Below the pieces are notes generated by a model. That model did not search any database. It worked only from the letters and a program-made list of their open reading frames with translations, and had not been told where the DNA came from. Source: Candidatus Woesebacteria bacterium (GTDB lineage Bacteria; Patescibacteriota; Microgenomatia; UBA8517). Taken from it: DNA of 64,000 nucleotides. The DNA lies in assembly GCA_003484955.1 (NCBI GenBank), contig DMZH01000001.1, positions 215,848 through 279,847 of the forward strand, in the 5' to 3' direction. This document shows positions 393 through 38,577 of the stretch, one piece after another. The translations under genes and the position numbers were made by a program. The number at the start of each line of letters is the position of its first letter. Positions within the stretch are counted from its first letter, which is position 1.

Positions 393-645
393 TCCCCTGT
401 AGCTCAACGGTAGAGCGAGATCCTGTCGAAAATGGCAGCTCTTGATAGTAATTTCAAGATGAAAATCAGGCTAATTCGGGGAACACCTTTTTAAGGCCAA
501 TCCCGAGCTAAACCACGAAAGTGTAAATGTGTAGAGACTATATACCTGACACCCATTTTGGGTGATGAGATAGTCCAATCCTTTTGGTAACAGAAGGGCT
601 ATTGTAAGATCGAGGTTGGAGGTTCGAATCCTCCCGGGGGAGCCA
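393..645 (+). tRNA. tRNA-Asn (anticodon GUU) interrupted by a group I intron between anticodon positions 35 and 36; CCA is encoded
   Basis: 5' exon 393-426: acceptor tcccctg, ta, D-arm gctc-aacggta-gagc, anticodon stem agatc, loop c-t-g-t. 3' exon 605-645: t-a-a, gatcg, variable aggtt, T-arm ggagg-ttcgaat-cctcc, acceptor cggggga, discriminator g, cca. The cloverleaf forms only if 427-604 is removed. Confidence 0.7.
427..604 (+). ncRNA. Group I self-splicing intron (about 178 nt) inside tRNA-Asn
   Basis: U at the end of the 5' exon can pair with G of an internal guide sequence (exon ctgt with gcag at 435-438). There is a P7-like pairing agacta (535-540) with tagtc (571-575), and a terminal G at 604. 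The intron is inserted in the anticodon loop, as in known bacterial tRNA group I introns. Confidence 0.6.
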
Positions 646-5105: not shown

Positions 5106-6065
5106 ATGAAAACTTGGCAAAGAATCAAAAACGATCCGAACCTGATGGAGAAATATTTGGTTCGGGAAAGAGTTATTGATACAATCCGCTCCTTTTTTAA
5201 AAATCAGGGTTTCCACGAGGTTTTTACGCCAATTTTGGTGCCTATACCCTCGATTGAACCCAACCTTGAAGTGTTTGAGTCGGAATTAAGAACTTCGAAA
5301 GGGGAAAAACGCAGAGCCTTTTTAATAATGAGCCCGGAGTTTTCTATTAAAAAACTTTTGGCGGGAGGAATCGGAAATTGTTTTGAAATTACAAAATGTT
5401 TCAGGAATGAAGAGGAGGCAAGTCCTCTTCACAACCCCGAATTTACCATGCTTGAATGGTATAGGATAAATGCCGATTATAAGGATATTATGAAAGATTT
5501 TGAACACTTATTTTTGAGAATTATCGGTAAAGATAAATTGGAATATCAAGGTGAAGTTTATGATCTTTCTCTTCCCTGGCCCAAAACAAGAATTCCTGAC
5601 GCTTTTGAAAAATATGCAGGAATGGATGTTTTAAAAGTATCGGATGAGGATTTTTACAAAATTTATTTTAATGAAATAGAACCGGAACTTTTGAAAATAA
5701 AAAAGCCGTACTTTATTTATGATTATCCGATTTCTCAAGCATCTTTGTCCAAGCCCGCTAAAGATCCTAGATTTGCGGAAAGATTTGAGGTTTTTCTTGG
5801 TGGAATTGAGCTTGGAAATTGTTTTTCCGAACTGACCGATGCCAAGGAACAGAAAAAGAGATTTGAGGCAGAGAAAAAAGACAGACAAAGAATGAACAAG
5901 ACAGAGTACCCGATAGACGAAGATTTAATTGAGGCTTTAAAAGAAGGAATTCCCGCCGTTTCCGGCATTGCCGTTGGCGTAGACAGGCTCGTCATGCTCG
6001 CTGCCGATACCTCTTCAATTGAGGAAACCATGTTTTTCCCCGGAAAAGAGCTATTTGACCTCTAG
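5106..6065 (+). CDS. epmA: EF-P (R)-beta-lysine ligase EpmA (PoxA/GenX), a class II lysyl-tRNA synthetase paralogue
   Basis: 319 aa; class II aaRS motif 2, FRNEEEASPLHNPEFTMLEWY, with no anticodon-binding domain. It lies immediately upstream of efp. Confidence 0.8.
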   Translation: MKTWQRIKNDPNLMEKYLVRERVIDTIRSFFKNQGFHEVFTPILVPIPSIEPNLEVFESELRTSKGEKRRAFLIMSPEFSIKKLLAGGIGNCFEITKCFRNEEEASPLHNPEFTMLEWYRINADYKDIMKDFEHLFLRIIGKDKLEYQGEVYDLSLPWPKTRIPDAFEKYAGMDVLKVSDEDFYKIYFNEIEPELLKIKKPYFIYDYPISQASLSKPAKDPRFAERFEVFLGGIELGNCFSELTDAKEQKKRFEAEKKDRQRMNKTEYPIDEDLIEALKEGIPAVSGIAVGVDRLVMLAADTSSIEETMFFPGKELFDL

Positions 6066-6093: not shown

Positions 6094-6660
6094 ATGAATA
6101 CAATTAATGCGGGTAACATCACCAAAGGGAGCTTTATTATTTTTAAAGGAGCACCTGTTTTTATAACCAAGGCTGAGTTTATGTCTCCCGGAAAAGGCTC
6201 TCCCGTTATGAGAATTAAGTTCAAAAATGTCCAAACAGGAGCCGCGGGGGAGTTTACCTATAAAACCGGAGAAAGCGTTGAGGTTGCAGAAATCGAGAAA
6301 AAAGAAATGGAATATCTATACCGGGATGGGGAAGAGCTGGTTTTTATGAACCCGAAATCATATGATCAGGTTAGTATTCCGATGGGTCTTATTGACGACC
6401 AGTTTGGCTATTTAACCCCAAATCTTAAATGTTGGATTGTCTGGTATAAAGGCAGCCCTATTGGCGCAACGCTCCCTTCCCATGTAACTTTAAAGGTGAC
6501 AGAATCTCCTGATGAGGTTGCCGGGAATAGAATCAATGCTCCCAAAAAGACAGTGAGACTTGAAACGGGAATTGAAGCCCAGGTCCCTTTGTTTATTAAA
6601 ATCGGAGAAAAAGTGCAGCTTGATACTACAACCGGGGAATATTTGGGAAGGGTTAAATAA
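6094..6660 (+). CDS. efp: Translation elongation factor P
   Basis: 188 aa; KOW-like N-terminus with the modified-lysine loop SPGKGSPVMRIKFKN, and typical EF-P domains II/III. Confidence 0.85.
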   Translation: MNTINAGNITKGSFIIFKGAPVFITKAEFMSPGKGSPVMRIKFKNVQTGAAGEFTYKTGESVEVAEIEKKEMEYLYRDGEELVFMNPKSYDQVSIPMGLIDDQFGYLTPNLKCWIVWYKGSPIGATLPSHVTLKVTESPDEVAGNRINAPKKTVRLETGIEAQVPLFIKIGEKVQLDTTTGEYLGRVK

Positions 6661-6678: not shown

Positions 6679-8178
6679 ATGTCCTTTTTACCGATTATCC
6701 TGGTAGCCGTCCCTTTTATTCTGTTTTTGATACTTCTTCTTTGGAAGAGAACACCGCTTATTTGGGTTTCTCTTGTTACCTTAATTCTGATAATTGTTTT
6801 GGCAGTCTTCTATTGGCAAGTTTACCCGACGTATATTTTTAATTCGCTGATCAAGGGTTTTCTTGTTGCTTTTGACATTCTAATTATCATTTTCGGGGCG
6901 GTTTTTTTCCTGGAAATTACACGGGAAACAAAAATCATCGAGAATATTGGCTACCACCTAGAATCCATTTCAAAAGACCTACGGGTACAAGTAATATTTT
7001 TGGCATGGTTTTTCGAGAACTTTCTGGAAGGTACAGCCGGGTTTGGAACCCCAGCAGCGGTTGTTGCCCCACTTCTGGTTAGTCTTGGAATTACTCCAAT
7101 AAATTCTGTCATAATTGCCCTTCTGGGAAATAGTGCTTCGGGTGTTTTTGGCGCTGCCGGAACCCCTATTAAAGTTGGTTTTGGCGCGCTTGCCGGTGCT
7201 TCAGTTCCAATTACAGCGGCAACCATTAATTTGATCGGAATTTTAGTACCGGTTTTTATGCTCTGGTTTTTGACCAAAGATAGGATAAACCGCAAGAAAG
7301 AATTTACCGAGGCGCTTCCTTTTGCCATTTGGGCCGGGGTTGCTTTTGCAATACCTTCTATATTTACCGTTTTTATAGGCCAGGAATTCCCCTCAATTTT
7401 GGGATCGGCAATTGGTTTATTTTTGGTACTGATTACCACCAAACTTGGTATCTTTATACCGAAGGTGGAAAAAGAACTTGTGGATATCCCGCGCCCTGCC
7501 AAACTTTCTTTGGGTAGGGTGTTGTTTCCTTATTTGTTCTTAATTGCGATTTTGATTGTTGGCAAGTTTACACTTGGCTCCTCGGGGATTCAAATCCCGA
7601 TTATTGTTAAGCACACGTTTTCATTCTTTAATCCGGGGTTTGCTTTCGTTATTGCCGGAATAGTAACTTTGTTGATGTATAAAAAGGATCTCAATCTTTT
7701 TACCAATTCCGCAAAGACGGCACTTAAAAAGTCTTTAATCCCATTCTTGGTGATTGTTTTTATGTCATCAATGGCACAAATTATGGTTAATTCAGTTCAC
7801 AATACAACGAGCCTACCATCAATGGTGGGCTTACTGGCGGTTTATGTTAAAAACATTTTTCTTCCGCTGTGGGCACCTCTGGTGGGAGCTTTCGGAAGTT
7901 TTCTTACAGGGAGCGTTACAATTTCCAATTTAATGTTTGGAAACTTTTTGGCAGTGGCTGCTAGGGATTTGGGTTTTGGAATAGACAAAATTTTGGCGCT
8001 TGCCGTTGTCGGGGGAGCGGCCGGTAACATGATAGCTCTTGCGGATATACTGGCTGCAGAAACCGTAGTCGGATTGAAACATAAAGAAAGAGAGGTTTTA
8101 AAAGGGGTTATACTGCCATGTTTGATTTACGTTGGATTGGTCGGTTTAGTGGGAATGTTTATTTTTAGCCAGCGTTAA
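6679..8178 (+). CDS. L-lactate permease (LctP family) transporter
   Basis: 499 aa polytopic membrane protein; FLEGTAGFGTPAAVVAPLLVSLG and GNSASGVFGAAGTPIKVG match LctP family signatures. Confidence 0.7.
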   Translation: MSFLPIILVAVPFILFLILLLWKRTPLIWVSLVTLILIIVLAVFYWQVYPTYIFNSLIKGFLVAFDILIIIFGAVFFLEITRETKIIENIGYHLESISKDLRVQVIFLAWFFENFLEGTAGFGTPAAVVAPLLVSLGITPINSVIIALLGNSASGVFGAAGTPIKVGFGALAGASVPITAATINLIGILVPVFMLWFLTKDRINRKKEFTEALPFAIWAGVAFAIPSIFTVFIGQEFPSILGSAIGLFLVLITTKLGIFIPKVEKELVDIPRPAKLSLGRVLFPYLFLIAILIVGKFTLGSSGIQIPIIVKHTFSFFNPGFAFVIAGIVTLLMYKKDLNLFTNSAKTALKKSLIPFLVIVFMSSMAQIMVNSVHNTTSLPSMVGLLAVYVKNIFLPLWAPLVGAFGSFLTGSVTISNLMFGNFLAVAARDLGFGIDKILALAVVGGAAGNMIALADILAAETVVGLKHKEREVLKGVILPCLIYVGLVGLVGMFIFSQR

Positions 8179-9083
8179 CACCTTACGTCTCCACCACAAT
8201 GTTGACAGTTGCTGATGAGTTGTCCAAAAGGTCTTATATTTGATCTTCCGCATTTGGGGCAGGTAAAACTAAGAGAACCATATTTATCCTCAAGTCCGGT
8301 TAAGTTCAAAGTTAAAGACTGGCTTTCAAGAGACGAAACAGATGATGATCCGCTGCAACTGACGGCAAATTTACCGACAAGCCCCTTTTCCTGCATTTCA
8401 TCAGCAATGGACTTGGCACTAGCTCCCGAATGAATCAGATCGACAAAATGGTGAATCAATTCATGGCTTGGGAGAGGGATATTATTTGCTTTAGTGCCTA
8501 TTAACTCTAAAAGATTCCCTAAATGAAAATCCCCATCAACTATGAAAAGTTTATTTCTTAATACTTCAGGGTCTTTAATTCCGGCAAAAACAGGGTTTAA
8601 CTTTGTTGCAACTTCCAAAGTGTGGTCTTTGGCTGTGTCAAAAAGCACGGTCACATTAAAAGTGGTTTTTTCTCCCAAAGGGGTTTCTTCTATTTGGTAC
8701 ATGGTGATTTTGTTGCATGGGTAGACAGAGTCGTATGACGGACTGATCCAGAGGGCTGTGCCCGACGGATTTTCCGATACCCAGGATGTTAACGTATTAA
8801 GAAGTTCTGCATCTTTTTGGCCAAGATAGGAGGACGTGTTGATTTCAATCCGCGTACTGGTTTGAAAATCAAGTAACTCTCCATTTTTATATCTGAATTT
8901 ATATTCGTCAGGCTTTCTGTGTGTTTCGTTAAATGTACTTATTATCTCTTCCCTTAAACGGTCTGGTTTGGTATATCTCCAAGAGGGGATAAACTTTTCG
9001 ATTGTTTTTGTTGGAGACTCTATGTGTGACATATTCCTGCTCGGGACTAAAAGATTGGGCTCTGGATGTAACAGTAGCGGCAC
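8175..9083 (-). CDS. Hypothetical protein with an HExxH motif and a C-terminal CxxC...CxxC zinc ribbon
   Basis: 302 aa; SHELIHHFVDLIHSG (HExxH) and C-terminal CPKCGRSNIRPFGQLISNCQHCGG. The true start may be the internal Met (MSHIESP). Confidence 0.55.
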   Translation of the reverse strand: MPLLLHPEPNLLVPSRNMSHIESPTKTIEKFIPSWRYTKPDRLREEIISTFNETHRKPDEYKFRYKNGELLDFQTSTRIEINTSSYLGQKDAELLNTLTSWVSENPSGTALWISPSYDSVYPCNKITMYQIEETPLGEKTTFNVTVLFDTAKDHTLEVATKLNPVFAGIKDPEVLRNKLFIVDGDFHLGNLLELIGTKANNIPLPSHELIHHFVDLIHSGASAKSIADEMQEKGLVGKFAVSCSGSSSVSSLESQSLTLNLTGLEDKYGSLSFTCPKCGRSNIRPFGQLISNCQHCGGDVRC

Positions 9084-9183
9084 TTCTACGGAATTGCACC
9101 GTAATTCACCAATTGGTTTAATGTACTTTTAACACGCCTTTCGGTCAAGTGGTATATTTATATTAGTAAGGGGGTGATGGTGC

Positions 9184-9357
9184 GTGTTAGGTAAAAGAAA
9201 TAAAGAATTAACTTCTAAAATACTAATGTTTGGGGCGGTTGCCTCAGTTCTTTTTTCGATCGCCGGTTGGATGGGTACCGATATTTGGCTAGCCTCAACC
9301 CAGTGGCTATTGGTAGCAGCAGTTTTGGCCCTTTTTAGCATTTATTTAAAGCAATAA
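9184..9357 (+). CDS. Possible small membrane protein (43-57 aa), not in the ORF track
   Basis: GTG at 9184, or ATG at 9226 (MFGAVASVLFSIAGWMGTDIWLASTQWLLVAAVLALFSIYLKQ). One or two hydrophobic helices. Upstream purine-rich gggggtg. Confidence 0.25.
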   Translation: MLGKRNKELTSKILMFGAVASVLFSIAGWMGTDIWLASTQWLLVAAVLALFSIYLKQ

Positions 9358-9453
9358 TGACTTGACTGCGGAGAAAGCGCGTTAATTTTGCGGAAATTAC
9401 TGCCACGCCCCAGGCTTGACAATGGCCTGACTTAGTGTTAACTTTCGCTCAAG

Positions 9454-9897
9454 GTGAATATAAAGAGGGTGGTTATAGTATTTATTATCTTGGTAATAAT
9501 CATTGCGGGAGCACTTCTTGTTTCTCAAAAGATTAAAAATAATAGGACTTCTATCAGTTTTCCCGAGGCAACCCCAACAGTTGAGCAGCAAATTGAGGAG
9601 AAATTCAAGGGATTGATAATACCGGATGATGCAGAAAAAGTAGAGCTCAAAAATGTATCAGGAGAGGAAGGAATGGGTATGGCCACAAGGAATGAAATTT
9701 TGGCGGATCTTCCCGATTTACAAAAAGGCGAAAACTATCAGGTTCTACTGGGGAATGGAACAAAAACAGTTCTTTTAGGAAGCATGAGGCAGGCAAAAGG
9801 AGGCTATCTTTTGGAATATGATTCTTCAAAATACCCTGGGTACAACCAAATTGTTGTAGTAAGAGGCGTCAAGCATATATTGGAAGGCTCGTTTTAA
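9454..9897 (+). CDS. Membrane-anchored hypothetical protein
   Basis: 147 aa; N-terminal TM helix (VVIVFIILVIIIAGALLV) followed by a soluble domain. GTG start. Confidence 0.5.
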   Translation: MNIKRVVIVFIILVIIIAGALLVSQKIKNNRTSISFPEATPTVEQQIEEKFKGLIIPDDAEKVELKNVSGEEGMGMATRNEILADLPDLQKGENYQVLLGNGTKTVLLGSMRQAKGGYLLEYDSSKYPGYNQIVVVRGVKHILEGSF

Positions 9898-9939
9898 TAA
9901 TATAGACGGAAACAATCCGGTAGGTTAATATGAATAAGG

Positions 9940-10194
9940 ATGCAGATCACAATTTACTCCACAGCAACTTGCCCCTATTGCAAAATACTGAAAGATTATC
10001 TGAAGGAAAAAGGGGTGTCTTTTGTCGAAAAAAATATAGATTCGGATGAGAAGGCAAAAGAAGAGATGTCAAACCTTTCTGGAGGATTTTTTGGGGTACC
10101 TTTTACTCTAATATCGTTTAATGACGGAAGAAAAGAAACGGTAATAGGCTTTGATAAAGGTAAAATTAATTCTATTTTGAATCTACAAGGATGA
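9940..10194 (+). CDS. Glutaredoxin-like protein (NrdH/Grx family)
   Basis: 84 aa; CPYC active site at the N-terminus of a thioredoxin fold (IYSTATCPYCKILKDYL). Confidence 0.7.
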   Translation: MQITIYSTATCPYCKILKDYLKEKGVSFVEKNIDSDEKAKEEMSNLSGGFFGVPFTLISFNDGRKETVIGFDKGKINSILNLQG

Positions 10195-10850
10195 TTTTCG
10201 TAAATTACAAAACTTTTGAAGAAGGCTCCGGTGAAAAAGCAGTTGCTCTGACCAGAAAAATTGAGGAGGCAGCCCATGAATCGCAAGTAAAGATAATTCC
10301 GGTAGTTCAGATAATTGATGCCGAGGTAGTTTTGGCTTCTACTACTCTTGAGGTTTGGATACAGCATGTGGATCCTCTTAATTACGGTCCGCATACTGGT
10401 TGGACTCTACCTGAAGAGGTAGCAAGGATCGGTATTTCGGGAGTATTTCTGAATCATTCCGAGCACAAATTTAACGATTTTGAGGCTCTCCGCACGGCAA
10501 ACGAAAAAGCAAAAGAGGCAAATCTCAAAACACTAATTTTTGCAGGCAGTCTTGAGGAACTGAAAAATATTGCGGCACTTAAACCAACCCTTGTTGCTTA
10601 TGAACCGCCGGAGCTGGTGGGTTCAACCGAAACATCAGTTGCCAGGGCGCAGCCGGAAATTATTTCTCAGGCGTATAATATTACTCAAAGCTCTGGTGAG
10701 CCTTTGATAGTGGGTGCAGGGGTAAGCTCGATGGAGGATATTAAAAAGAGTTTGGAGCTTGGAGCGGTGGGTGTTGCTATTGCAACGGCGGTAGTTAAGG
10801 CCCCCGATCCCAAAGCAAAATTGTTAGAATTAACGGAGGGTTTTAAATGA
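10191..10850 (+). CDS. tpiA: Triosephosphate isomerase, short archaeal-type
   Basis: 219 aa; NYKTFEEGSG, LNHSEHKF, AYEPPELVGS, GAGVSS fit the short (about 220 aa) archaeal-type TIM rather than the about 250-aa bacterial form. Confidence 0.7.
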   Translation: MIFVNYKTFEEGSGEKAVALTRKIEEAAHESQVKIIPVVQIIDAEVVLASTTLEVWIQHVDPLNYGPHTGWTLPEEVARIGISGVFLNHSEHKFNDFEALRTANEKAKEANLKTLIFAGSLEELKNIAALKPTLVAYEPPELVGSTETSVARAQPEIISQAYNITQSSGEPLIVGAGVSSMEDIKKSLELGAVGVAIATAVVKAPDPKAKLLELTEGFK

Positions 10851-11296
10851 AAATTTTTATCGGGGCTGATCACAGGGGGTATGAGTTGAAAGAAAAAATT
10901 GCCAAATGGCTTTTTGATATGGAGTACCCCTATCAGGATCTTGGGGCAACTCATTTTGATCCACACGACGACTATACAAAATACGCGGAGGATGTCGCAT
11001 CGCTTGTTGCCAAAACGGGAGGAGCGCGCGGAGTTCTTCTTTGCGGGAGTGGGGTCGGGGTTGACGTTGTTGCAAATAAATTCGACGGAGTAAGGGCGTC
11101 AATTGGAAAATCAGTTTTTCAGGTTGAAGCGGGAAGAAATGACGACGATATGAATATACTAGTCATCGCCGCCGACTTTACCGATGAAAGAGATACAAAG
11201 GCAATGCTTATCGCTTTTCTGGAAACAAAATTTTCCGGTAAGGCAAGATACGAGCGGAGACTTCAGGAAATTACGGAAATAGAAGCAAATAATTAA
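10847..11296 (+). CDS. rpiB: Ribose-5-phosphate isomerase B (RpiB/LacAB family)
   Basis: 149 aa; MKIFIGADHRGYELK...GVLLCGSGVGVDVVANKFDGVRAS matches RpiB. Confidence 0.8.
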   Translation: MKIFIGADHRGYELKEKIAKWLFDMEYPYQDLGATHFDPHDDYTKYAEDVASLVAKTGGARGVLLCGSGVGVDVVANKFDGVRASIGKSVFQVEAGRNDDDMNILVIAADFTDERDTKAMLIAFLETKFSGKARYERRLQEITEIEANN

Positions 11297-11297
11297 G

Positions 11298-12257
11298 ATG
11301 AACCTGCCCAAACTTACCGATATTGATGTTTCCGGAAAAAGAGTCATCGTTAGGGCCGATTTGGATATTGTCGGATCTGAGAATTATAGGCTTGACGCAA
11401 TTACACCTACTTTAGACTTCCTTTTCAACAAGGCCTCAAAAATAACGGTTATCGGACACAAGGGGAGGCCCGGAGGGGTATACGACGAGGGTTTAAGCAC
11501 AAAAGGACTACAGCCATTTTTCGATAAATGGAGAGCAAAAGTTGAAGAAAATTTAAGATTTGATCCCGGAGAAGAGGCTAATGACCCTGAATTTGCTAAA
11601 AAGTTGGCAAGTTTGGGTGATGTCTATATTAATGAAGCATTTGCGTCGTCTCATCGGGATTCGGCCTCAATCACTTCGCTTCCAAAGCTATTGCCCCACG
11701 CAGCAGGGATAAGATTTGCTCAAGAAGTAGAGAATCTGAATAAAGTTTTGGAAGACCCCAAAAGGCCGGTTTTGTTTATTATCGGTGGGTCAAAAGATGA
11801 CAAGGTCGACTATATAAAAAGTTTGGAACCCTTTGCAGACAAAATATTAGTTGGTGGGAGACTCCCCGAGTATTACGGGGATAGGGCTCTTGAAAGCGTA
11901 AGGGAACAAAAAGAAGGAGATAAATTAGTTATCGCAAATCTGGTGCAGGATAAAGAAGATATCACTCTGAACTCGATTGAGAGGTTTGAGAAAGAAATAG
12001 GAAAAGCGAAAACAATAGTTCTTGCCGGTCCAATGGGAAAATATGAGGTAGAGGGACACATGCAGGGAACTGAAAGGGTTTTTAGGGCTGTCGCAAACTC
12101 CAATGCATATAAGGTAACCGGGGGAGGAGACAGTCTCGTGGTTATTGACAAACTTAGTCTTGTCCAAAAATTTGACTGGGTATCGGTTGGCGGAGGGGCA
12201 ATGCTTGAGTTCCTGTCCAAAAAGACACTTCCAGGTATTGAAGCTTTGAAACAGTGA
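11298..12257 (+). CDS. pgk: Phosphoglycerate kinase (short form)
   Basis: 319 aa; VIVRADLDIV...ITVIGHKGRPGG, NEAFASSHR, GGSKDDKV and GGGDS...VGGGAMLEFL are PGK motifs. It is shorter than the usual about 395 aa. Confidence 0.75.
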   Translation: MNLPKLTDIDVSGKRVIVRADLDIVGSENYRLDAITPTLDFLFNKASKITVIGHKGRPGGVYDEGLSTKGLQPFFDKWRAKVEENLRFDPGEEANDPEFAKKLASLGDVYINEAFASSHRDSASITSLPKLLPHAAGIRFAQEVENLNKVLEDPKRPVLFIIGGSKDDKVDYIKSLEPFADKILVGGRLPEYYGDRALESVREQKEGDKLVIANLVQDKEDITLNSIERFEKEIGKAKTIVLAGPMGKYEVEGHMQGTERVFRAVANSNAYKVTGGGDSLVVIDKLSLVQKFDWVSVGGGAMLEFLSKKTLPGIEALKQ

Positions 12258-29294: not shown

Positions 29295-31751
29295 ATGGCA
29301 TTACAAACGGTAAGTTCAAAAAAAGCGTCTAAAGCTAAACAAAAGAAAGTCGTTTATAAAAACGGTGAGACAAAAGTAACTCTCAACGATTTAATTGCAC
29401 CCTCCTATGAAGAAATAATGTCCGAGGTAAAGAAAAAGGCGGGAGAACGGCCCGAAAGAGATCCGGCATTGCCGGCAGGAATCTGGACGAAACAGGCACT
29501 AAAGGTATTGGAGGAGAGATATTTGGTAAAAGATGAGAAGCTAAACCCCATTGAAAATCCTGAAGATATGGTTTGGAGAGTTTCCTGGGAGATGGCCTCG
29601 GCCGAAGTCAGGTGGGGAAGTAAAAGAAAAGAAGTGGAGGCTCTCGCAAAAGAATTTTACAACCTTTTGATTTCAAGAGAGTTTTTGCCAAACTCTCCAA
29701 CATTAATGAATGCTGGAACCGGTAACGGTCTCCAATATTCTGCTTGTTTTGTTTTGCCGGTTGAGGACTCCATGGAGGGAATCTTTGATGCTCTGAAATA
29801 TCAGGCCTTAATCCATAAAACAGGAGGGGGAACCGGATTTTCTTTCAGCAGGCTTAGGGAGGGAGGTTCTATTGTCAGGACTTCTTCAGGAATTGCTTCC
29901 GGGCCGGTTTCGTTCATGAGAATTTTTGATGCGGCAACCAATGAAGTTAAACAGGGCGGAAAAAGAAGGGGTGCAAATATGGGAATTCTAAGGGTTGACC
30001 ACCCGGATGTGTTGGAATTTATTCACTGTAAAGAGAACGGGGGGATAACCAATTTTAATATCTCGGTTGCAATTACAGATAAGTTTATAGATGCCTATTA
30101 CAAAGACGAAGAATACGAACTGATTAGTCCAAAAACCAAAAGCACGGTTGGAACTCTTTCTGCTAGGCGGGTTTTTGATGAGATTGCGGAATCGGCATGG
30201 AAAACCGGGGATCCGGGGCTTATCTTTATCGATAGGGTTAACCAGGGAACTGCTAATCCAATCCCTGCTTTAGGCCCAATTGAATCCACAAATCCGTGCG
30301 GAGAACAGCCTCTTTATCCTTTTGATGTCTGTAACTTAGGCAGCATCTTTTTGACCTATTTTATTAAAGAAGAAAACGGTAAAAAAGAAGTCGATTGGGA
30401 AAAACTCAAAAAAGTCACACATCAGGCCACCAGATTTTTGGATGATGTTATTGAAGTTAATCCGTTTCCACTTCCCGAAATTAGAAAAGTGGCATTTAAT
30501 ATCAGGAGAATCGGTCTTGGGGTGGGAGGATGGAGTGATATGCTTGTTGGCCTGGGAATTCCTTATGACAGTGAGGAGGCGATGACGCTGGCCGAAAAAG
30601 TAATGAAATTTATTCAGGATGAGGCAGTTTCGGCATCCGAGGAGCTGGCAAAAAAAAGAGGACCTTTCTTCCTTTGGCCGGTTTCAATTTACAGGGAAGG
30701 CGCTCCAAGAAGACACTCTACTGTTACGACAATCGCCCCAACCGGGACAATTTCAATCCTTGCAGGCGCCAGCAGCGGAATTGAACCGATGTTTGCGATT
30801 GCCTATCAGCATATTGTTAAAGATAAACACCTCAATAGAAAACTTTCTTTTGTTAACCCTGATTTTGAAAAAATTGCCAAAGAGCGTGGTTTCTGGTCGG
30901 AAGACCTGATGGCAAAAGTTGCCGAAAAAGGAGTGGTAAGGGATATAGAGGAAGTTCCGGAGGACGTCAGGAGAATTTTCGGGACGGCTCACGAGATAGA
31001 TATAAACTGGCATATAAGAACACAAACAGCCTTCCAAAAATATACTGAAAACGCCGTCAGTAAGACAATTAATTTGAGGCACGATGCAACAGTTGATGAT
31101 GTCAAAAAGGCATATTTGGCAGCATGGGAGGGTAACTGTAAAGGAATTACCATCTTTAGAGACGGTAGCAAAAGCGAGCAGGTTTTGAATTTAGGACTTG
31201 ATAAAAAAGAAGAAAGTAAAAGGGAAAACCCGGCTCCAAGCCAAATGATTTTGGAAAGACCGGTAAAGGTTGAAGGAGCAACATATAGAATTGTTACACC
31301 TCTTGGTAGTGCATTTATTACCGTTAATCAGGATTCTGAAGGAAATCCATTTGAATTATTTATTACAATCGGAAAGGCGGGAAGTGAAGTTGCGGCTATG
31401 GCGGAGGCTCTGGGACGTATGATTTCTACAACCCTGAGATTTGGAAATCATAAGCCGCCGATTGAAAGGGCACGCGAAATAGTTGAACAACTAAAAGGTA
31501 TTGGTGGGGGAAGGTCGGTGGGTTTTGGACCAAATAAAGTTAGATCCTTGCCCGATGCCGTAGCTAAGGCGATTTCACTTCATTTTGGATTTAATAATGT
31601 AAATCATGATGCTCCTGAGGTGATAGAAGCCGCTTCGGATAAAGAAGAAACCAAAGTTGTTGGTGATATTTGCCCTGCCTGCGGATCTCCCGCTCTTGTC
31701 TATCAAGAAGGTTGTTCCAAATGTCATGCATGCGGGCACTCCGAGTGTTAA
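29295..31751 (+). CDS. nrdJ: Ribonucleoside-diphosphate/triphosphate reductase, class II (adenosylcobalamin-dependent, NrdJ-like)
   Basis: 818 aa monomeric-type RNR; active-site TNPCGEQPL, C-terminal CPACGSPALVYQEGCSKCHACG redoxin tail. No NrdB or NrdG nearby, but a cobalamin adenosyltransferase lies downstream. Confidence 0.75.
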   Translation: MALQTVSSKKASKAKQKKVVYKNGETKVTLNDLIAPSYEEIMSEVKKKAGERPERDPALPAGIWTKQALKVLEERYLVKDEKLNPIENPEDMVWRVSWEMASAEVRWGSKRKEVEALAKEFYNLLISREFLPNSPTLMNAGTGNGLQYSACFVLPVEDSMEGIFDALKYQALIHKTGGGTGFSFSRLREGGSIVRTSSGIASGPVSFMRIFDAATNEVKQGGKRRGANMGILRVDHPDVLEFIHCKENGGITNFNISVAITDKFIDAYYKDEEYELISPKTKSTVGTLSARRVFDEIAESAWKTGDPGLIFIDRVNQGTANPIPALGPIESTNPCGEQPLYPFDVCNLGSIFLTYFIKEENGKKEVDWEKLKKVTHQATRFLDDVIEVNPFPLPEIRKVAFNIRRIGLGVGGWSDMLVGLGIPYDSEEAMTLAEKVMKFIQDEAVSASEELAKKRGPFFLWPVSIYREGAPRRHSTVTTIAPTGTISILAGASSGIEPMFAIAYQHIVKDKHLNRKLSFVNPDFEKIAKERGFWSEDLMAKVAEKGVVRDIEEVPEDVRRIFGTAHEIDINWHIRTQTAFQKYTENAVSKTINLRHDATVDDVKKAYLAAWEGNCKGITIFRDGSKSEQVLNLGLDKKEESKRENPAPSQMILERPVKVEGATYRIVTPLGSAFITVNQDSEGNPFELFITIGKAGSEVAAMAEALGRMISTTLRFGNHKPPIERAREIVEQLKGIGGGRSVGFGPNKVRSLPDAVAKAISLHFGFNNVNHDAPEVIEAASDKEETKVVGDICPACGSPALVYQEGCSKCHACGHSEC

Positions 31752-31762
31752 AATGACGCCGA

Positions 31763-32299
31763 ATGGCTATCTATACAAAAACGGGTGATAAAGGGGAAAC
31801 GGGACTTTTTTCTTCTGATAGGTCAAAAAAAATCAGGATAAGTAAAGCTTCTTTGAGGGTTGAGGCAATTGGATCGGTAGATGAGGCAAACACTTTTTTG
31901 GGATTGGCAGCATCTTTTCTAAAAAACAAGGAAATTAATCCCAAGATAATTGAAATTCAGAAACACCTTTTTGAGGTTGGGGCTATATTGGCAGGTGTAA
32001 AAATTGATATGGATAAAGATCTACCCCAGGAAATGGAAAAAGAGATTGATGAAATGGATAAACGACTACCCAAATTAACCCACTTTATTCTTCCAGGAGG
32101 TGGGCACGGGGGAAGCCTTCTTTTTATGGCAAGAACATTTATCAGGCGGGCCGAGAGAAGAGTAGTTTCCCTTTCCAAGAAAGAAAAAGTTAACACAAAT
32201 CTAATGATTTATCTTAATAGACTTTCTGACTACGTCTATACACTTGCGAGGTACTCAAACTTCAAAGAAGGGATAAAGGAAAAGGCTTGGAGAGGGTAG
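31763..32299 (+). CDS. ATP:cob(I)alamin adenosyltransferase, PduO-type
   Basis: 178 aa; MAIYTKTGDKGETGLFSSDRSKKIRISKASLRVEAIGSVDEANTFLGLA matches the PduO/MMAB N-terminal signature. Confidence 0.75.
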   Translation: MAIYTKTGDKGETGLFSSDRSKKIRISKASLRVEAIGSVDEANTFLGLAASFLKNKEINPKIIEIQKHLFEVGAILAGVKIDMDKDLPQEMEKEIDEMDKRLPKLTHFILPGGGHGGSLLFMARTFIRRAERRVVSLSKKEKVNTNLMIYLNRLSDYVYTLARYSNFKEGIKEKAWRG

Positions 32300-35945: not shown

Positions 35946-36016
35946 GTGGGCTCGCATGGAATCGAACCATGGCATCGACTTTATAAGAGTCGTGTCCTAC
36001 CATTAAACGACAAGCC
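35946..36016 (-). tRNA. tRNA-Ile with a genomically encoded UAU anticodon
   Basis: Reverse complement gggcttg-tc-gttt-aatggta-ggac-a-cgact-cttataa-agtcg-atgc-catgg-ttcgatt-ccatg-cgagccc-a folds as a cloverleaf. The anticodon loop ct-TAT-aa gives UAU. No encoded CCA. Confidence 0.75.
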
Positions 36017-36062
36017 CGTTACTATCAAAGTCTAGTCGTATTATAACAGAAGAGAGGCTGTT

Positions 36063-36926
36063 TTATAGCTCTATGAGGACTTGTTTTTTACCAGGATCCG
36101 TAATTTGGGCAAGTTCAAGATAGCGCTCGGTTGTCGAAAGGCGCTTGTGTCCTGAAACTTGTGAGAGAAGAACAATATCAACTCCGGCTTTAAGGTTTTC
36201 AATAATAAATGTGGTCCTCAAGTCATTGACAGAATAGTTTGGAAGTTCTGCTTTTTGAATATATCTGGCAATTGACGCCCTGATATTTCTGACTGCCAGA
36301 GGCTTTCCGTTTTTACTGATAAACACATACGGCGAATCCGCCTTCGGACGGATTGTCAGGTAGGCATTTAACACATCGGATGCGGGTTTGTTGAGAGGAA
36401 TAGTTCTTTCGGGTTGGGTTGCATAGGCCTCAATTTTTAAGGAATCTCCCCCGACATTTTCAGTCTTTAAGCTGGCAACTTCGGAAATTCTAAGTCCGCT
36501 TTGGAGAATTAGTTCAGTGATAGCGGCGATCCTAATATCATTTCTGACGACATCCCTTAGGGCTCTATACTCAAGAGGGGAGAGAAATTTGGGAAGCGCA
36601 CTTTCAATTTTTGGATGTGCTACCGAAGCGGAAACATCGGATGTAATGATATTTTCCGAAATCATCCATCTAAAGAAGGTTTTGACGGCGTTAAGCTTGC
36701 GGCTAACCGATTTCGGGGTGTATTTATCGGCCAAAAGAGTATCACGAAAAGAGTCGAGATCATCTGGTCTTACCTGTTCGGGTAAAACTTTTTCGCGTCT
36801 GACCAAAAACTCCACTAGCTGAGTTAAGTCGCTTCGGTAGGCCAAAATGGTTGCCGGTGAACGCCTTTTCTCAGTTAACGAATTTATAAATTTTGGGAGC
36901 AGGCTTTTGATAGGTTCTTGTGCCAT
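36063..36926 (-). CDS. Tyrosine site-specific recombinase (XerC/XerD or phage-integrase family)
   Basis: 287 aa; N-terminal SAM-like core-binding domain (ILAYRSDLTQLVEFL), catalytic R...GLRISEV...HKRLSTTERYLEL (R-H-R-Y). Confidence 0.8.
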   Translation of the reverse strand: MAQEPIKSLLPKFINSLTEKRRSPATILAYRSDLTQLVEFLVRREKVLPEQVRPDDLDSFRDTLLADKYTPKSVSRKLNAVKTFFRWMISENIITSDVSASVAHPKIESALPKFLSPLEYRALRDVVRNDIRIAAITELILQSGLRISEVASLKTENVGGDSLKIEAYATQPERTIPLNKPASDVLNAYLTIRPKADSPYVFISKNGKPLAVRNIRASIARYIQKAELPNYSVNDLRTTFIIENLKAGVDIVLLSQVSGHKRLSTTERYLELAQITDPGKKQVLIEL

Positions 36927-37447: not shown

Positions 37448-37727
37448 TTGCGGGGCTGGGAGTTGAACCCAGCCTGTGAGATTATGCTTTTCGCGTTTCT
37501 CCGGTTTCCCGGAGTGTCGGACTATGTCTTCCCCGAAACAAGTTCGGAGTCTGGCGTATAGTCTCTACGGACTCGCCACATTCAGTTATGAATGTGGATT
37601 GCCTCGGCGTTACCCTGTGACTCGAATAATCTTGTCATTTAGGTTTCACCGATACAGTCAGATTTCATTCTAATCTCTTAGAAATGGCCCAATTTGAGCC
37701 TCACGTGCAGCCGTACACTACCCCGCA
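37448..37727 (-). tRNA. tRNA with anticodon CAU (Met / Ile2-type) interrupted by a group I intron between positions 33 and 34
   Basis: Minus-strand 5' exon 37727-37697: tgcgggg-ta-gtgt-acggct-gcac-g-tgagg-ct. 3' exon 37486-37448: cataa-tctca-cagg-ctggg-ttcaact-cccag-ccccgca-a. Acceptor, anticodon and T stems pair perfectly only after removing 37487-37696. Confidence 0.65.
37487..37696 (-). ncRNA. Group I self-splicing intron (about 210 nt) inside the CAU tRNA
   Basis: 5' exon ends in U that can pair with G of an IGS (exon ggct with intron ggcc). There is a P7-like agactata (plus-strand 37559-37566) with atagtc (plus-strand 37520-37525), and a terminal G before the 3' exon. It has the same architecture as the tRNA-Asn intron. 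Confidence 0.55.
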
Positions 37728-37804: not shown

Positions 37805-38488
37805 ATGTCTAAGTCGGTTCAGAAGGTTGAAGCTAGAGAGTTAAGATTAAAAGGAAAAAGCATTAAAAAAATTGCCAAAAAACTTGGTGTTTCGGTTGGC
37901 TCTGTAAGTATTTGGTGTCGGGATATCGAATTAAGTCTTGATCAGAAAAAGATATTGGATATTAATGCTAGAAATCCTTATTACGGCGGAAGGGGGGTTT
38001 ATTTAAGAAACTTAAAAAAGAGAACCGACCTGAAGGCCAAAAAACTTGAAAAGGCCGGAGTTAAAGAAATAGGGAAACTGGGCAAAAGAGAACTGTTTCT
38101 AACCGGCGCAGCCCTTTATTGGGCGGAGGGTTTTAAAAAAGACAGCCAGGTAGGTTTGGCCAGTCTTGATTCCAAAATGATTAAATTTTTTATTAAATGG
38201 CTTAAAGTTTGTTTTGGATATAAAGATCAGGACCTAATGTTTAGACTGACGGTAAACATCAGTCATAAATACAGAATTTCCGAGATTGAAAAACACTGGT
38301 CGGAGGAACTAAAAATTCCCCTCAGCCAATTCCAAAAGCCTTTTTACCAAAATTTTATATGGAAAAAGGTTTACGACAATCCAGAAGATTACTTTGGTGT
38401 TTTAAGAGTTAAGGTGCGAAAAAGTAAAGATTTTCTGAGAAAAATTTATGGATTTATCGATGGTTTGAGATTACAAGCTCAAGTGTAG
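37805..38488 (+). CDS. HTH-domain protein with a LAGLIDADG-like (second-motif type, LYWAEG) endonuclease-like domain
   Basis: 227 aa; N-terminal HTH (IKKIAKKLGVSVGSVSIWCRD). Central FLTGAALYWAEGFKKDSQV...FIKWLKVCFGYKD resembles the GLYVAEGDK motif and following strand of LAGLIDADG homing endonucleases. Confidence 0.45.
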   Translation: MSKSVQKVEARELRLKGKSIKKIAKKLGVSVGSVSIWCRDIELSLDQKKILDINARNPYYGGRGVYLRNLKKRTDLKAKKLEKAGVKEIGKLGKRELFLTGAALYWAEGFKKDSQVGLASLDSKMIKFFIKWLKVCFGYKDQDLMFRLTVNISHKYRISEIEKHWSEELKIPLSQFQKPFYQNFIWKKVYDNPEDYFGVLRVKVRKSKDFLRKIYGFIDGLRLQAQV

Positions 38489-38504: not shown

Positions 38505-38577
38505 GCCGGCGTAGCTCAGTGGTAGTAGCGGACGTTTCATAAGCGTCAGGTCACAGGTTCAATCCCTGTCGCCGGCA
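38505..38577 (+). tRNA. tRNA-Met (anticodon CAU; elongator-type features)
   Basis: gccggcg-ta-gctc...-g-gacgt-ttCATaa-gcgtc-aggtc-acagg-ttcaatc-cctgt-cgccggc-a. G1-C72 paired and no run of three G-C pairs in the anticodon stem, so not a canonical initiator. Confidence 0.8.

Follow-up and report, generated by a model that had tools for sequence, protein, structure and literature searches.

How AUA can be read as isoleucine while AUG is not misread is a classic question of the genetic code, and the answer taught for bacteria is the minor tRNA-Ile2, whose gene carries a CAU anticodon that the essential enzyme TilS modifies to lysidine. Exceptions to lysidine are known from a few parasites and a single species of Bifidobacterium: a tRNAscan-SE 2.0 survey records a genomic UAU anticodon in 17 bacterial genomes, from Bifidobacterium adolescentis, Mycoplasma and Neorickettsia (PMC8450103, File S5), and no genome of the Candidate Phyla Radiation (CPR) stands among the cases of ‘Ile3-TAT’ instead of Ile2 in its supplement. 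Here we analyze a tRNA-Ile gene with a UAU anticodon in a 64,000-nt stretch of a Candidatus Woesebacteria genome (assembly GCA_003484955.1, contig DMZH01000001.1, positions 215,848 to 279,847), which as a whole we call the window. A preliminary description of this DNA had called such an anticodon rare and known from only a few bacteria such as Mycoplasma mobile, and the survey bears this out.

The tRNA-Ile2(UAU) of M. mobile (PMC3575796) is likewise encoded with UAU, derived from Ile2, AUA-reading and equipped with A37 and A38. Experiments on M. mobile have shown that it lacks tilS, that its U34 is unmodified, that its isoleucyl-tRNA synthetase (IleRS) is adapted through Arg865 and that its ribosome discriminates, whereas the Woesebacteria are known from sequence; M. 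mobile is, however, a single species, whereas the trait described here covers an entire CPR clade, with at least 39 species-level genomes. A further difference is that AUA is used as much as AUG in the window. B. adolescentis and Neorickettsia also have tRNA-Ile(TAT) in place of tRNA-Ile2(CAT), in their case together with a eukaryote-type IleRS, whereas for Woesebacteria the comparison covers the tRNA (PMC3575796; PMC8450103). Lactobacillus casei, Cyanothece PCC 7424 and Ferrimonas balearica are further bacteria with a genomic TAT gene (PMC3575796), but there it is sporadic and redundant with lysidine, whereas in Woesebacteria it is clade-wide, sits at one locus and has an Ile2-type stem. In a Bacillus subtilis suppressor of a tilS deletion, an isoleucine tRNA with U34 also reads AUA without lysidine (PMC3919564; Fabret 2011), but that tRNA is a laboratory mutation of tRNA-Ile1(GAU), whereas the Woesebacteria tRNA is natural and ancient, with an acceptor stem of Ile2 rather than Ile1 type. 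Nanoarchaeum equitans, Korarchaeum cryptofilum and the eukaryotes, which are reduced or distinct lineages without a C34-modifying enzyme, similarly write UAU in the gene, although they belong to different domains with different IleRS types. Eukaryotes turn U34 and U36 of their tRNA-Ile(UAU) into pseudouridine. The strategy itself is known and rare; what is new is its presence across a whole CPR clade with a high AUA load.

The window gene is a real, canonical tRNA with the anticodon UAU written in the gene. ARAGORN reports five tRNAs in the window, and the one at 35946-36017 of the minus strand is a tRNA-Ile whose anticodon is tat; Rfam tRNA (RF00005) matches 35947-36017 on the same strand at 62.7 bits against a gathering threshold of 29 (E 3e-11, model positions 1-71 of 71). 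Arm by arm, the sequence reads GGGCUUG UC GUUU AAUGGUA GGAC A CGACU CUUAUAA AGUCG AUGC CAUGG UUCGAUU CCAUG CGAGCCC A, with a 7-bp acceptor stem (GGGCUUG/CGAGCCC), a 5-bp anticodon stem (CGACU/AGUCG), U8, A14, G18G19, U33, A37, A38, a T loop UUCGAUU and the discriminator A73; the CCA end is not encoded. A thermodynamic fold of this single sequence was uninformative, and the structure was settled by comparison. We imposed the cloverleaf on an alignment of 34 distinct tRNA-Ile(UAU) sequences (21 pairs, 714 stem cells, 500 shuffles) and observed standard pairing in 99.6% of the cells and changes on both sides, that is compensatory ones, in 18 of the 21 pairs, values reached by 0 of the 500 shuffles. 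Sliding the 3′ partners by one to three columns lowers pairing to 20–52%, and all seven positions of the loop CUUAUAA are invariant across the orthologues, as are A73, A37 and A38. Because the covariation fixes the register, CUUAUAA is the 7-nt anticodon loop and the anticodon is not mis-assigned. A mis-assigned anticodon was the outcome by which the preliminary description would have seen its claim of a minus-strand cloverleaf with loop cuUAUaa refuted; that claim stands on ARAGORN, Rfam and the orthologue covariation alike. Its coordinates, 35946-36016, have the locus right, but the 5′ end lies at 36017, and 35946 is one base beyond the discriminator.

To place the gene in its lineage, we scanned one genome per species with the neighboring recombinase protein and obtained 40 loci, all from Candidatus Woesebacteria, Microgenomates or Patescibacteria, in which this protein is 62–97% identical; an identical copy also occurs on a 750,195-bp contig of a Rifle aquifer sediment metagenome, which carries the same locus, and on several other assemblies. 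Of the 40 loci, 38 have a tRNA-Ile(tat), called by ARAGORN, next to the recombinase gene in the same syntenic position, and in the other two (L025 and L046) the contig ends at the recombinase gene. On the side of the recombinase the shared gene order is Fpg, GT4, exonuclease, FtsH, tRNA-binding protein, TrpRS, tRNA-Met, initiator-like tRNA, DivIC and Xer, followed by tRNA-Ile; on the other side, tRNA-Ile is followed by UDP-glucose dehydrogenase, a VirD4-like ATPase and, further on, ribonucleotide reductase (RNR) and NrdR. An extended −10 promoter-like motif precedes the window gene, and a motif of the TGnTAnAAT type, counted by consensus match, lies upstream of tRNA-Ile in 26 of 39 genes (the 38 relatives and the window). 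Within the window, the motif TGNTATAAT has 7 matches where 2.6 are expected, and 3 of the 7 are just upstream of tRNA genes. Judged by this comparative evidence, tRNA-Ile(UAU) is a working tRNA under strong purifying selection.

The body of the tRNA resembles tRNA-Ile2. In bacteria, C3-G70 is usual in tRNA-Met and tRNA-fMet, whereas G3, A3, C70 or T70 mark tRNA-Ile(CAT), in which C4-G69 and C5-G68 are also frequent (PMC1635315, Silva et al., section 9). Among the 34 UAU sequences, the 3-70 pair is G3-C70 in 23, A3-U70 in 9, U3-A70 in 2 and C3-G70 in 0, with C4-G69 in 22 and C5-G68 in 23. By these marks, the acceptor stem carries the bacterial tRNA-Ile2 signature and not that of tRNA-Met. Two further tRNA genes nearby have a CAU anticodon, and we compared them with E. 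coli reference tRNAs, each of which is present at 100% identity in practically every one of the 5,426 complete genomes of that species. The first (type a) has C3-G70 in 35 of 35 sequences, never has C at position 4 or 5, and is closest overall to E. coli elongator tRNA-Met (0.715 mean identity). The second (type b) has C3-G70 in 21 of 21 sequences, with G4-C69 and G5-C68, and its acceptor stem UGCGGGG/CCCCGCA-A, the same in all 21 distinct sequences, differs from its counterpart in the E. coli initiator at position 1 alone, where it has U; it carries the initiator marks G2-C71, C3-G70, G4-C69 and A73 and lacks a strong 1:72 pair (having a weak U1-A72), and its overall identity is highest with that initiator (0.68 vs 0.57–0.58). 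In some species the type-b T loop starts with CGC or UGC instead of UUC, and its D loop has 5–6 nt. The acceptor stems and overall identities support an elongator Met tRNA and an initiator-like tRNA rather than Ile2, as had been proposed for the two CAU tRNAs within 2.6 kb of the UAU gene in the preliminary description. The simplest reading of the cluster would be three tRNAs for AUG and AUA, of which the Ile2 member has U34 in its gene.

AUA is in heavy use and behaves as isoleucine. The 58 window genes hold 363 AUA codons, at least one in every gene, which amounts to 20.4 per 1000 codons and 26% of the isoleucine codons, against 19.2 per 1000 for AUG; this is the level classed as high AUA usage in PMC12514573. 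Across 403 gene-orthologue alignments, AUA positions of the window align to AUU or AUC in 39.6% of cases, AUA in 19.9%, Val in 14.6%, Leu in 9.3% and AUG in 3.6%. AUU and AUC positions have essentially the same substitution profile, whereas AUG positions stay AUG in 61% of aligned cases, and because the AUA profile matches that of AUU/AUC and differs from that of AUG, we read AUA as isoleucine. Such high use of AUA as isoleucine means that its decoder must be efficient.

From these lines of evidence we estimate a probability of roughly 0.7 that this is the gene for the minor, AUA-reading isoleucine tRNA of a Woesebacteria (CPR) bacterium. The tRNA would descend from a bacterial tRNA-Ile2 gene by a change of C34 to U34, as its sequence signatures suggest, and together with the adjacent initiator-like and elongator Met tRNAs it would form a complete set of decoders for the AUR codons. 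U34 would pair directly with the A of AUA, and the IleRS of the clade would have to accept the UAU anticodon. Misreading of AUG might be limited by an unmodified U34, a weak A-U-rich helix and ribosomal or kinetic discrimination, as in M. mobile, or alternatively by some modification of U34. We further consider it fairly probable that this tRNA has replaced the tRNA-Ile2(CAU)/TilS-lysidine system and that TilS was lost. We favor replacement because the gene is conserved clade-wide, has an Ile2-type acceptor stem and clusters with the Met and initiator tRNAs, and also because the genomes are small, no CAU twin occurs in a Woesebacteria context, and UAU is found in every displaced copy of the tRNA (see below).

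The search for the lysidine system covered the 64-kb window and 10 kb on each side, about 84 kb or about 11% of a genome of roughly 750 kb, together with the loci of the relatives. Pfam annotation gave no TilS domain in the proteins of the window or its 10-kb flanks, and a profile built from three solved TilS proteins (E. coli 1NI5, Geobacillus 3A2K and Aquifex 1WY5) had 0 matches in 1,326 open reading frames (ORFs) of the window, the flanks and the loci of the 40 relatives. As a control, the same profile gave 40 hits in 41 phage loci; these 41 loci, found among viral contigs, hold no Woesebacteria-like proteins, and we judge them to carry phage TilS genes. Against a collection of 5.8 billion proteins the profile returned only Aquificae and Enterobacteria, so that it reaches only near relatives of its queries. 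Among 241 million metagenome contigs we found no CAU-anticodon twin of the clade’s tRNA body in a Woesebacteria context; 67 hits for such a twin were set aside, as their many tRNAs and GC content make them look like phage or organelle tRNA arrays. The M. mobile-type class is marked by an IleRS in which the residue at E. coli Trp905 is replaced by Arg or Lys, or by a eukaryote-type IleRS, and in the window, the flanks and the sequences examined from relatives no ORF of ≥800 aa with a KMSKS motif was present. The literature that we found contains no link between tilS or lysidine and Patescibacteria or CPR.

Several observations weigh against replacement, and against the assignments on which it draws. 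The sequence inspected for tilS, a third CAU tRNA and IleRS is about 84 kb of a genome of roughly 750 kb. tilS coexists with a TAT gene in L. casei, Cyanothece PCC 7424 and Ferrimonas (PMC3575796), and since E. coli-type IleRS charges a UAU anticodon poorly (PMC3575796), the replacement calls for an adapted IleRS. Overall identity places the type-a CAU tRNA only just nearer to Met (0.715) than to Ile2 (0.684) of E. coli, and it is mainly the discriminators in its acceptor stem that assign it to Met. The type-b tRNA has U1-A72 in place of the C1xA72 mismatch; its anticodon stem is A29-U41, G30-C40 and G31-U39 rather than a run of three G-C pairs; and its D stem has U11-A24 instead of A11-U24, although G12-C23 is present. 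Because these canonical marks are missing, we call it initiator-like and not a canonical initiator.

The alternative that survives best holds that tilS and a tRNA-Ile2(CAU) lie elsewhere in the genome and that the UAU tRNA is a redundant, extra reader of AUA. The precedents just cited and the inspected share of the genome speak for it, as does the reach of the generic TilS profile, which returned only Aquificae and Enterobacteria. We nevertheless regard it as unlikely. The UAU gene is kept in every related species sampled, and such clade-wide conservation, combined with an Ile2-type acceptor stem, points to a converted Ile2 gene and not to an additional one. tilS is commonly located beside ftsH or a phosphoribosyltransferase gene, but we saw it beside neither; the genes adjoining ftsH here are trpS and the gene for the tRNA-binding protein. 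The lack of a CAU twin of the tRNA body in a Woesebacteria context also argues against redundancy, and genomes of 0.75–1.1 Mb seem unlikely to keep two systems for one codon.

A second alternative, that the tRNA belongs to a recent prophage or island, or is its attachment site, and is not part of core translation, appears very unlikely. A tyrosine recombinase does adjoin the gene, phage tRNA arrays often hold tRNA-Ile(tat), and in relatives the gene has repeatedly been replaced by incoming copies that left half-tRNA scars. However, the recombinase is Xer-like (its best NCBIfam matches are XerC, XerA and XerD, each below the cut-off) and syntenic in 40 related species, in which the order of ftsH, trpS and divIC on one side and UDP-glucose dehydrogenase, VirD4-like ATPase and class II RNR on the other is kept, with no island between the recombinase, the tRNA and the flanking genes. 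The copy in the window has its own promoter motif and no scars, and the turnover in relatives is like for like, always UAU. As for a phage origin of the tRNA, a tRNA-Ile(UAU) that shares the D-arm pattern occurs on 21 viral contigs, a match partly forced by the search pattern, at identities of 0.74–0.83 that do not exceed those within the clade. Separately, we observed frequent tRNA-Ile(tat) in what we judge to be phage tRNA arrays, both in metagenomes (L096, L109, L114, L121, L149 and L157) and in viral contigs (L163–L183), where its D arm, UCGUUYA..GG..AGGAC, is of the type found in most Woesebacteria copies.

Codon reassignment, in which the UAU tRNA would be charged with methionine or AUA otherwise read as in many mitochondria, could draw on the unusual frequency of AUA, level with AUG, but AUA exchanges with AUU/AUC, Val and Leu just as AUU does and only rarely with AUG, and the identity of a tRNA for the methionyl-tRNA synthetase depends on C34, so that we consider reassignment highly improbable. 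That the gene is a false positive or a decaying pseudogene has nothing beyond the rarity of the anticodon to recommend it and is practically dismissed by scores far above threshold, near-perfect pairing with compensatory changes in 34 distinct sequences, and a conserved promoter motif.

If the Woesebacteria, a large, free-standing radiation of ultra-small bacteria from groundwater and similar environments, do read AUA in this way, they would offer dozens of natural replicates of the changes in IleRS, ribosome or U34 modification that make such a tRNA safe. Assumptions about TilS would then fail for the clade, namely that it can serve as a universal marker (the GTDB bac120 set includes TIGR02432) or as an antibiotic target, and that CAU and TAT tRNAs can all be called by default rules. 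A second wobble function may likewise be written into a gene in this lineage. About 6.1 kb upstream of window position 1 (L048, 3211-3283, plus strand) lies a tRNA-Arg with anticodon GCG in the loop UUGCGGA. Bacteria usually use a tRNA-Arg with ACG, which TadA deaminates to inosine. More than one wobble-editing enzyme may therefore have become unnecessary here, and the Mollicutes are a published precedent for the loss of both the lysidine and the TadA enzymes (PMC3711424).

The relatives also suggest how such a gene might be turned over. Among the loci L007–L046, around positions 8000–12000 of each, the three tRNA genes (Met, initiator-like and Ile-UAU) switch orientation from species to species while the protein genes around them stay in the same order and on the same strand. 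An intact tRNA-Ile(UAU) or elongator tRNA-Met is nested between the halves of an older copy of the same tRNA in at least 14 loci. On the 5′ side of these scars stand the old promoter and a 5′ half ending in CUUAU (UCAU for Met), followed after 10–35 nt by an intact tRNA of different sequence; on the 3′ side of the intact tRNA, 10–45 nt lead to AUAA and the old 3′ half. The older copies are thus cut in the anticodon loop after A35-U36. In L018, the match of the old halves to the L008 tRNA is 97% and 91%, and the 5′ part of the L018 tRNA gene equals that of L029, a distant species, which indicates exchange between lineages. The displaced copies of tRNA-Ile all carry T34, which shows that its UAU anticodon is old.

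The inserted unit is a whole, promoterless tRNA with short inverted-repeat flanks, ATTAAAATTT...AAATTTTAAT in L018 and GTTAGTGAATTCTGG...CCAGAATTTACTAAC in L027, and its junctions are often YAT/GACAG and CTGTC/ATAA. Such junctions would be expected if a palindromic partner site were exchanged at the A35-U36 dinucleotide. The corresponding attP-like junction CTGTC-AT-GACAG was absent from all window and relative sequences examined. The half-tRNA scars point to tRNA cassette replacement, for which the Xer-type recombinase and a 227-aa helix-turn-helix (HTH) protein encoded in the same cluster are candidate enzymes. The 227-aa protein has 583 homologues of about 225 aa, from Patescibacteria or Woesebacteria wherever an organism is named, and carries a conserved ‘LYWAEGFKKD’ motif; its AlphaFold model (pLDDT 89) had no significant fold match. 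Its homologue was in the same locus in the three genomes looked up (the window, L159 and L162), and its gene immediately precedes tRNA-Met or tRNA-Ile(UAU) in some 15 related loci; here it adjoins the intron-bearing tRNA described below. In L162, a small GIY-YIG nuclease gene (5377-5628, minus strand) lies between divIC and the gene for the HTH protein and adds a further gene of endonuclease type to the tRNA cluster.

Tyrosine-recombinase elements that integrate at tRNA genes are well known, including a class with its crossover in the anticodon loop. The arrangement here resembles them in having an anticodon-loop crossover beside a tyrosine recombinase gene and partial tRNA copies in relatives. 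Classical elements, however, carry only the 3′ part of the tRNA and have a distant 3′ repeat, whereas the unit in the relatives is about 100–150 bp, holds a whole promoterless tRNA and is surrounded by both old halves, sometimes nested twice. If confirmed, it would be a previously undescribed kind of small mobile unit, and if it is indeed mobile, its scars would reveal a new way for selfish DNA to occupy an essential gene without killing the host. In the mechanism we envisage, the cassette would recombine at A35-U36 of the resident anticodon loop, always within 1–3 kb of the conserved Xer-type recombinase, split the old gene, take over its promoter and leave nested half-tRNA scars; it could also be a route by which the UAU gene displaced an ancestral CAU gene. 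The combined proposal, that Woesebacteria gave up lysidine and TilS, write the anticodon for AUA (and possibly that for CGY) into the gene, and have their tRNA-Ile and tRNA-Met turned over by a small mobile cassette, is a tentative one, and we would not yet bet on all of its parts together. The coordinates of the cluster, of the scars and of other features are collected in Table 1.

Table 1. Positions of the features discussed. Coordinates are those of the window, or for L-numbered loci those of the locus.
Feature	Position	Strand	Evidence or remarks
tRNA-Ile(UAU), positions 1-73	35947..36017	-	ARAGORN; Rfam tRNA, 62.7 bits; covariation in 34 orthologues
Extended -10 promoter-like motif TGTTATAAT	36040..36048	-	22 nt upstream of tRNA-Ile(UAU) 5′ end; consensus match
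Xer-family tyrosine recombinase	36063..36926	-	Pfam Phage_integrase and SAM-like domains; adjoins tRNA-Ile(UAU) throughout
Initiator-like tRNA(CAU), type b	37448..37727	-	5′ exon 37697-37727, intron 37487-37696, 3′ exon 37448-37486
227-aa protein, candidate cassette enzyme	37805..38488	+	N-terminal helix-turn-helix and alpha/beta domain; directly upstream of tRNA-Met; weak Pfam HTH hits
Elongator tRNA-Met(CAU), type a	38505..38577	+	ARAGORN and Rfam
Second tRNA with group I intron	393-645	+	Intron about 429-604; Rfam 70.7 bits at 415-597
319-aa class II aminoacyl-tRNA-synthetase-like protein	5106-6065	+	Catalytic core only; directly upstream of elongation factor P (EF-P), 6094-6660 (+)
AdoCbl-II (B12) riboswitch	9048-9125	-	36.8 vs gathering 36.5; overlaps start of unannotated 302-aa ORF 8175-9083
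Scar locus L018	10887-11069		5′ half 11035-11069, intact gene 10951-11025, 3′ half 10887-10921
Scar locus L024	8460-8649		L018-like arrangement
Scar locus L027	11481-11669		L018-like arrangement
Scar locus L042 (Ile)	11591-11885		Twice nested
Scar locus L029 (tRNA-Met)	8900-9209		Twice nested
Scar locus L023	11554-11735
Further scar loci			L007, L008, L010, L012, L020, L028, L030, L033, L041

The type-b tRNA gene is split by a group I intron, which Rfam Intron_gpI (RF00028) matches at 37498-37706 with 58.2 bits against a gathering threshold of 50. Setting the splice sites so that the exon ends in U and the intron in G places the intron between U33 and C34, with junctions GGCU/caaa and aaag/CAUAA. 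The score, the U before the 5′ splice site, the 3′ G and the intact tRNA that is left after removal are those of a group I intron, and L007, a 97% relative, has an uninterrupted type-b gene identical to the predicted spliced product. The intron in the initiator-like tRNA is also found in L014, L031, L034 and L042 and is absent in other species, and split BLAST matches were seen in L008, L018, L025, L032 and L041. In the second intron-bearing tRNA of the window, the same U/G rule puts the intron between positions 35 and 36 and leaves the loop CUGUUAA, which makes the gene a tRNA-Asn(GUU); we take its body (UCCCCUG..., discriminator G, encoded CCA) to resemble E. coli tRNA-Asn. The intron mode of ARAGORN labels the two tRNAs Leu(caa) and Thr(tgt), which we rejected as an artefact in favor of the U/G rule, because the program assumes an intron at 37/38. 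ARAGORN may also miss an intron-bearing initiator-like gene.

The remaining gene content of the window, with glycolysis genes, class II RNR with a B12 riboswitch, and a VirD4-like ATPase, fits a CPR bacterium. The class II RNR lies with a cobalamin adenosyltransferase at 29295-32299. The 319-aa protein encoded directly upstream of EF-P is probably no synthetase but an EF-P lysyl transferase of the EpmA/PoxA type. A 16S rRNA gene lies past the window end (about 69.8–72.4 kb; L050, 913-2138) with two flanking LAGLIDADG homing-endonuclease ORFs (130-600 and 2124-2585), and its Rfam match spans the full model of 1,533 positions in 1,226 bases. Nearly all 2-kb bins of the window have a GC skew of zero or above (one is at −0.016), and the cumulative curve climbs from 0 to 3.65 with no real turn, which recalls the strand composition disparity described in other Microgenomates genomes (PMC7143001).

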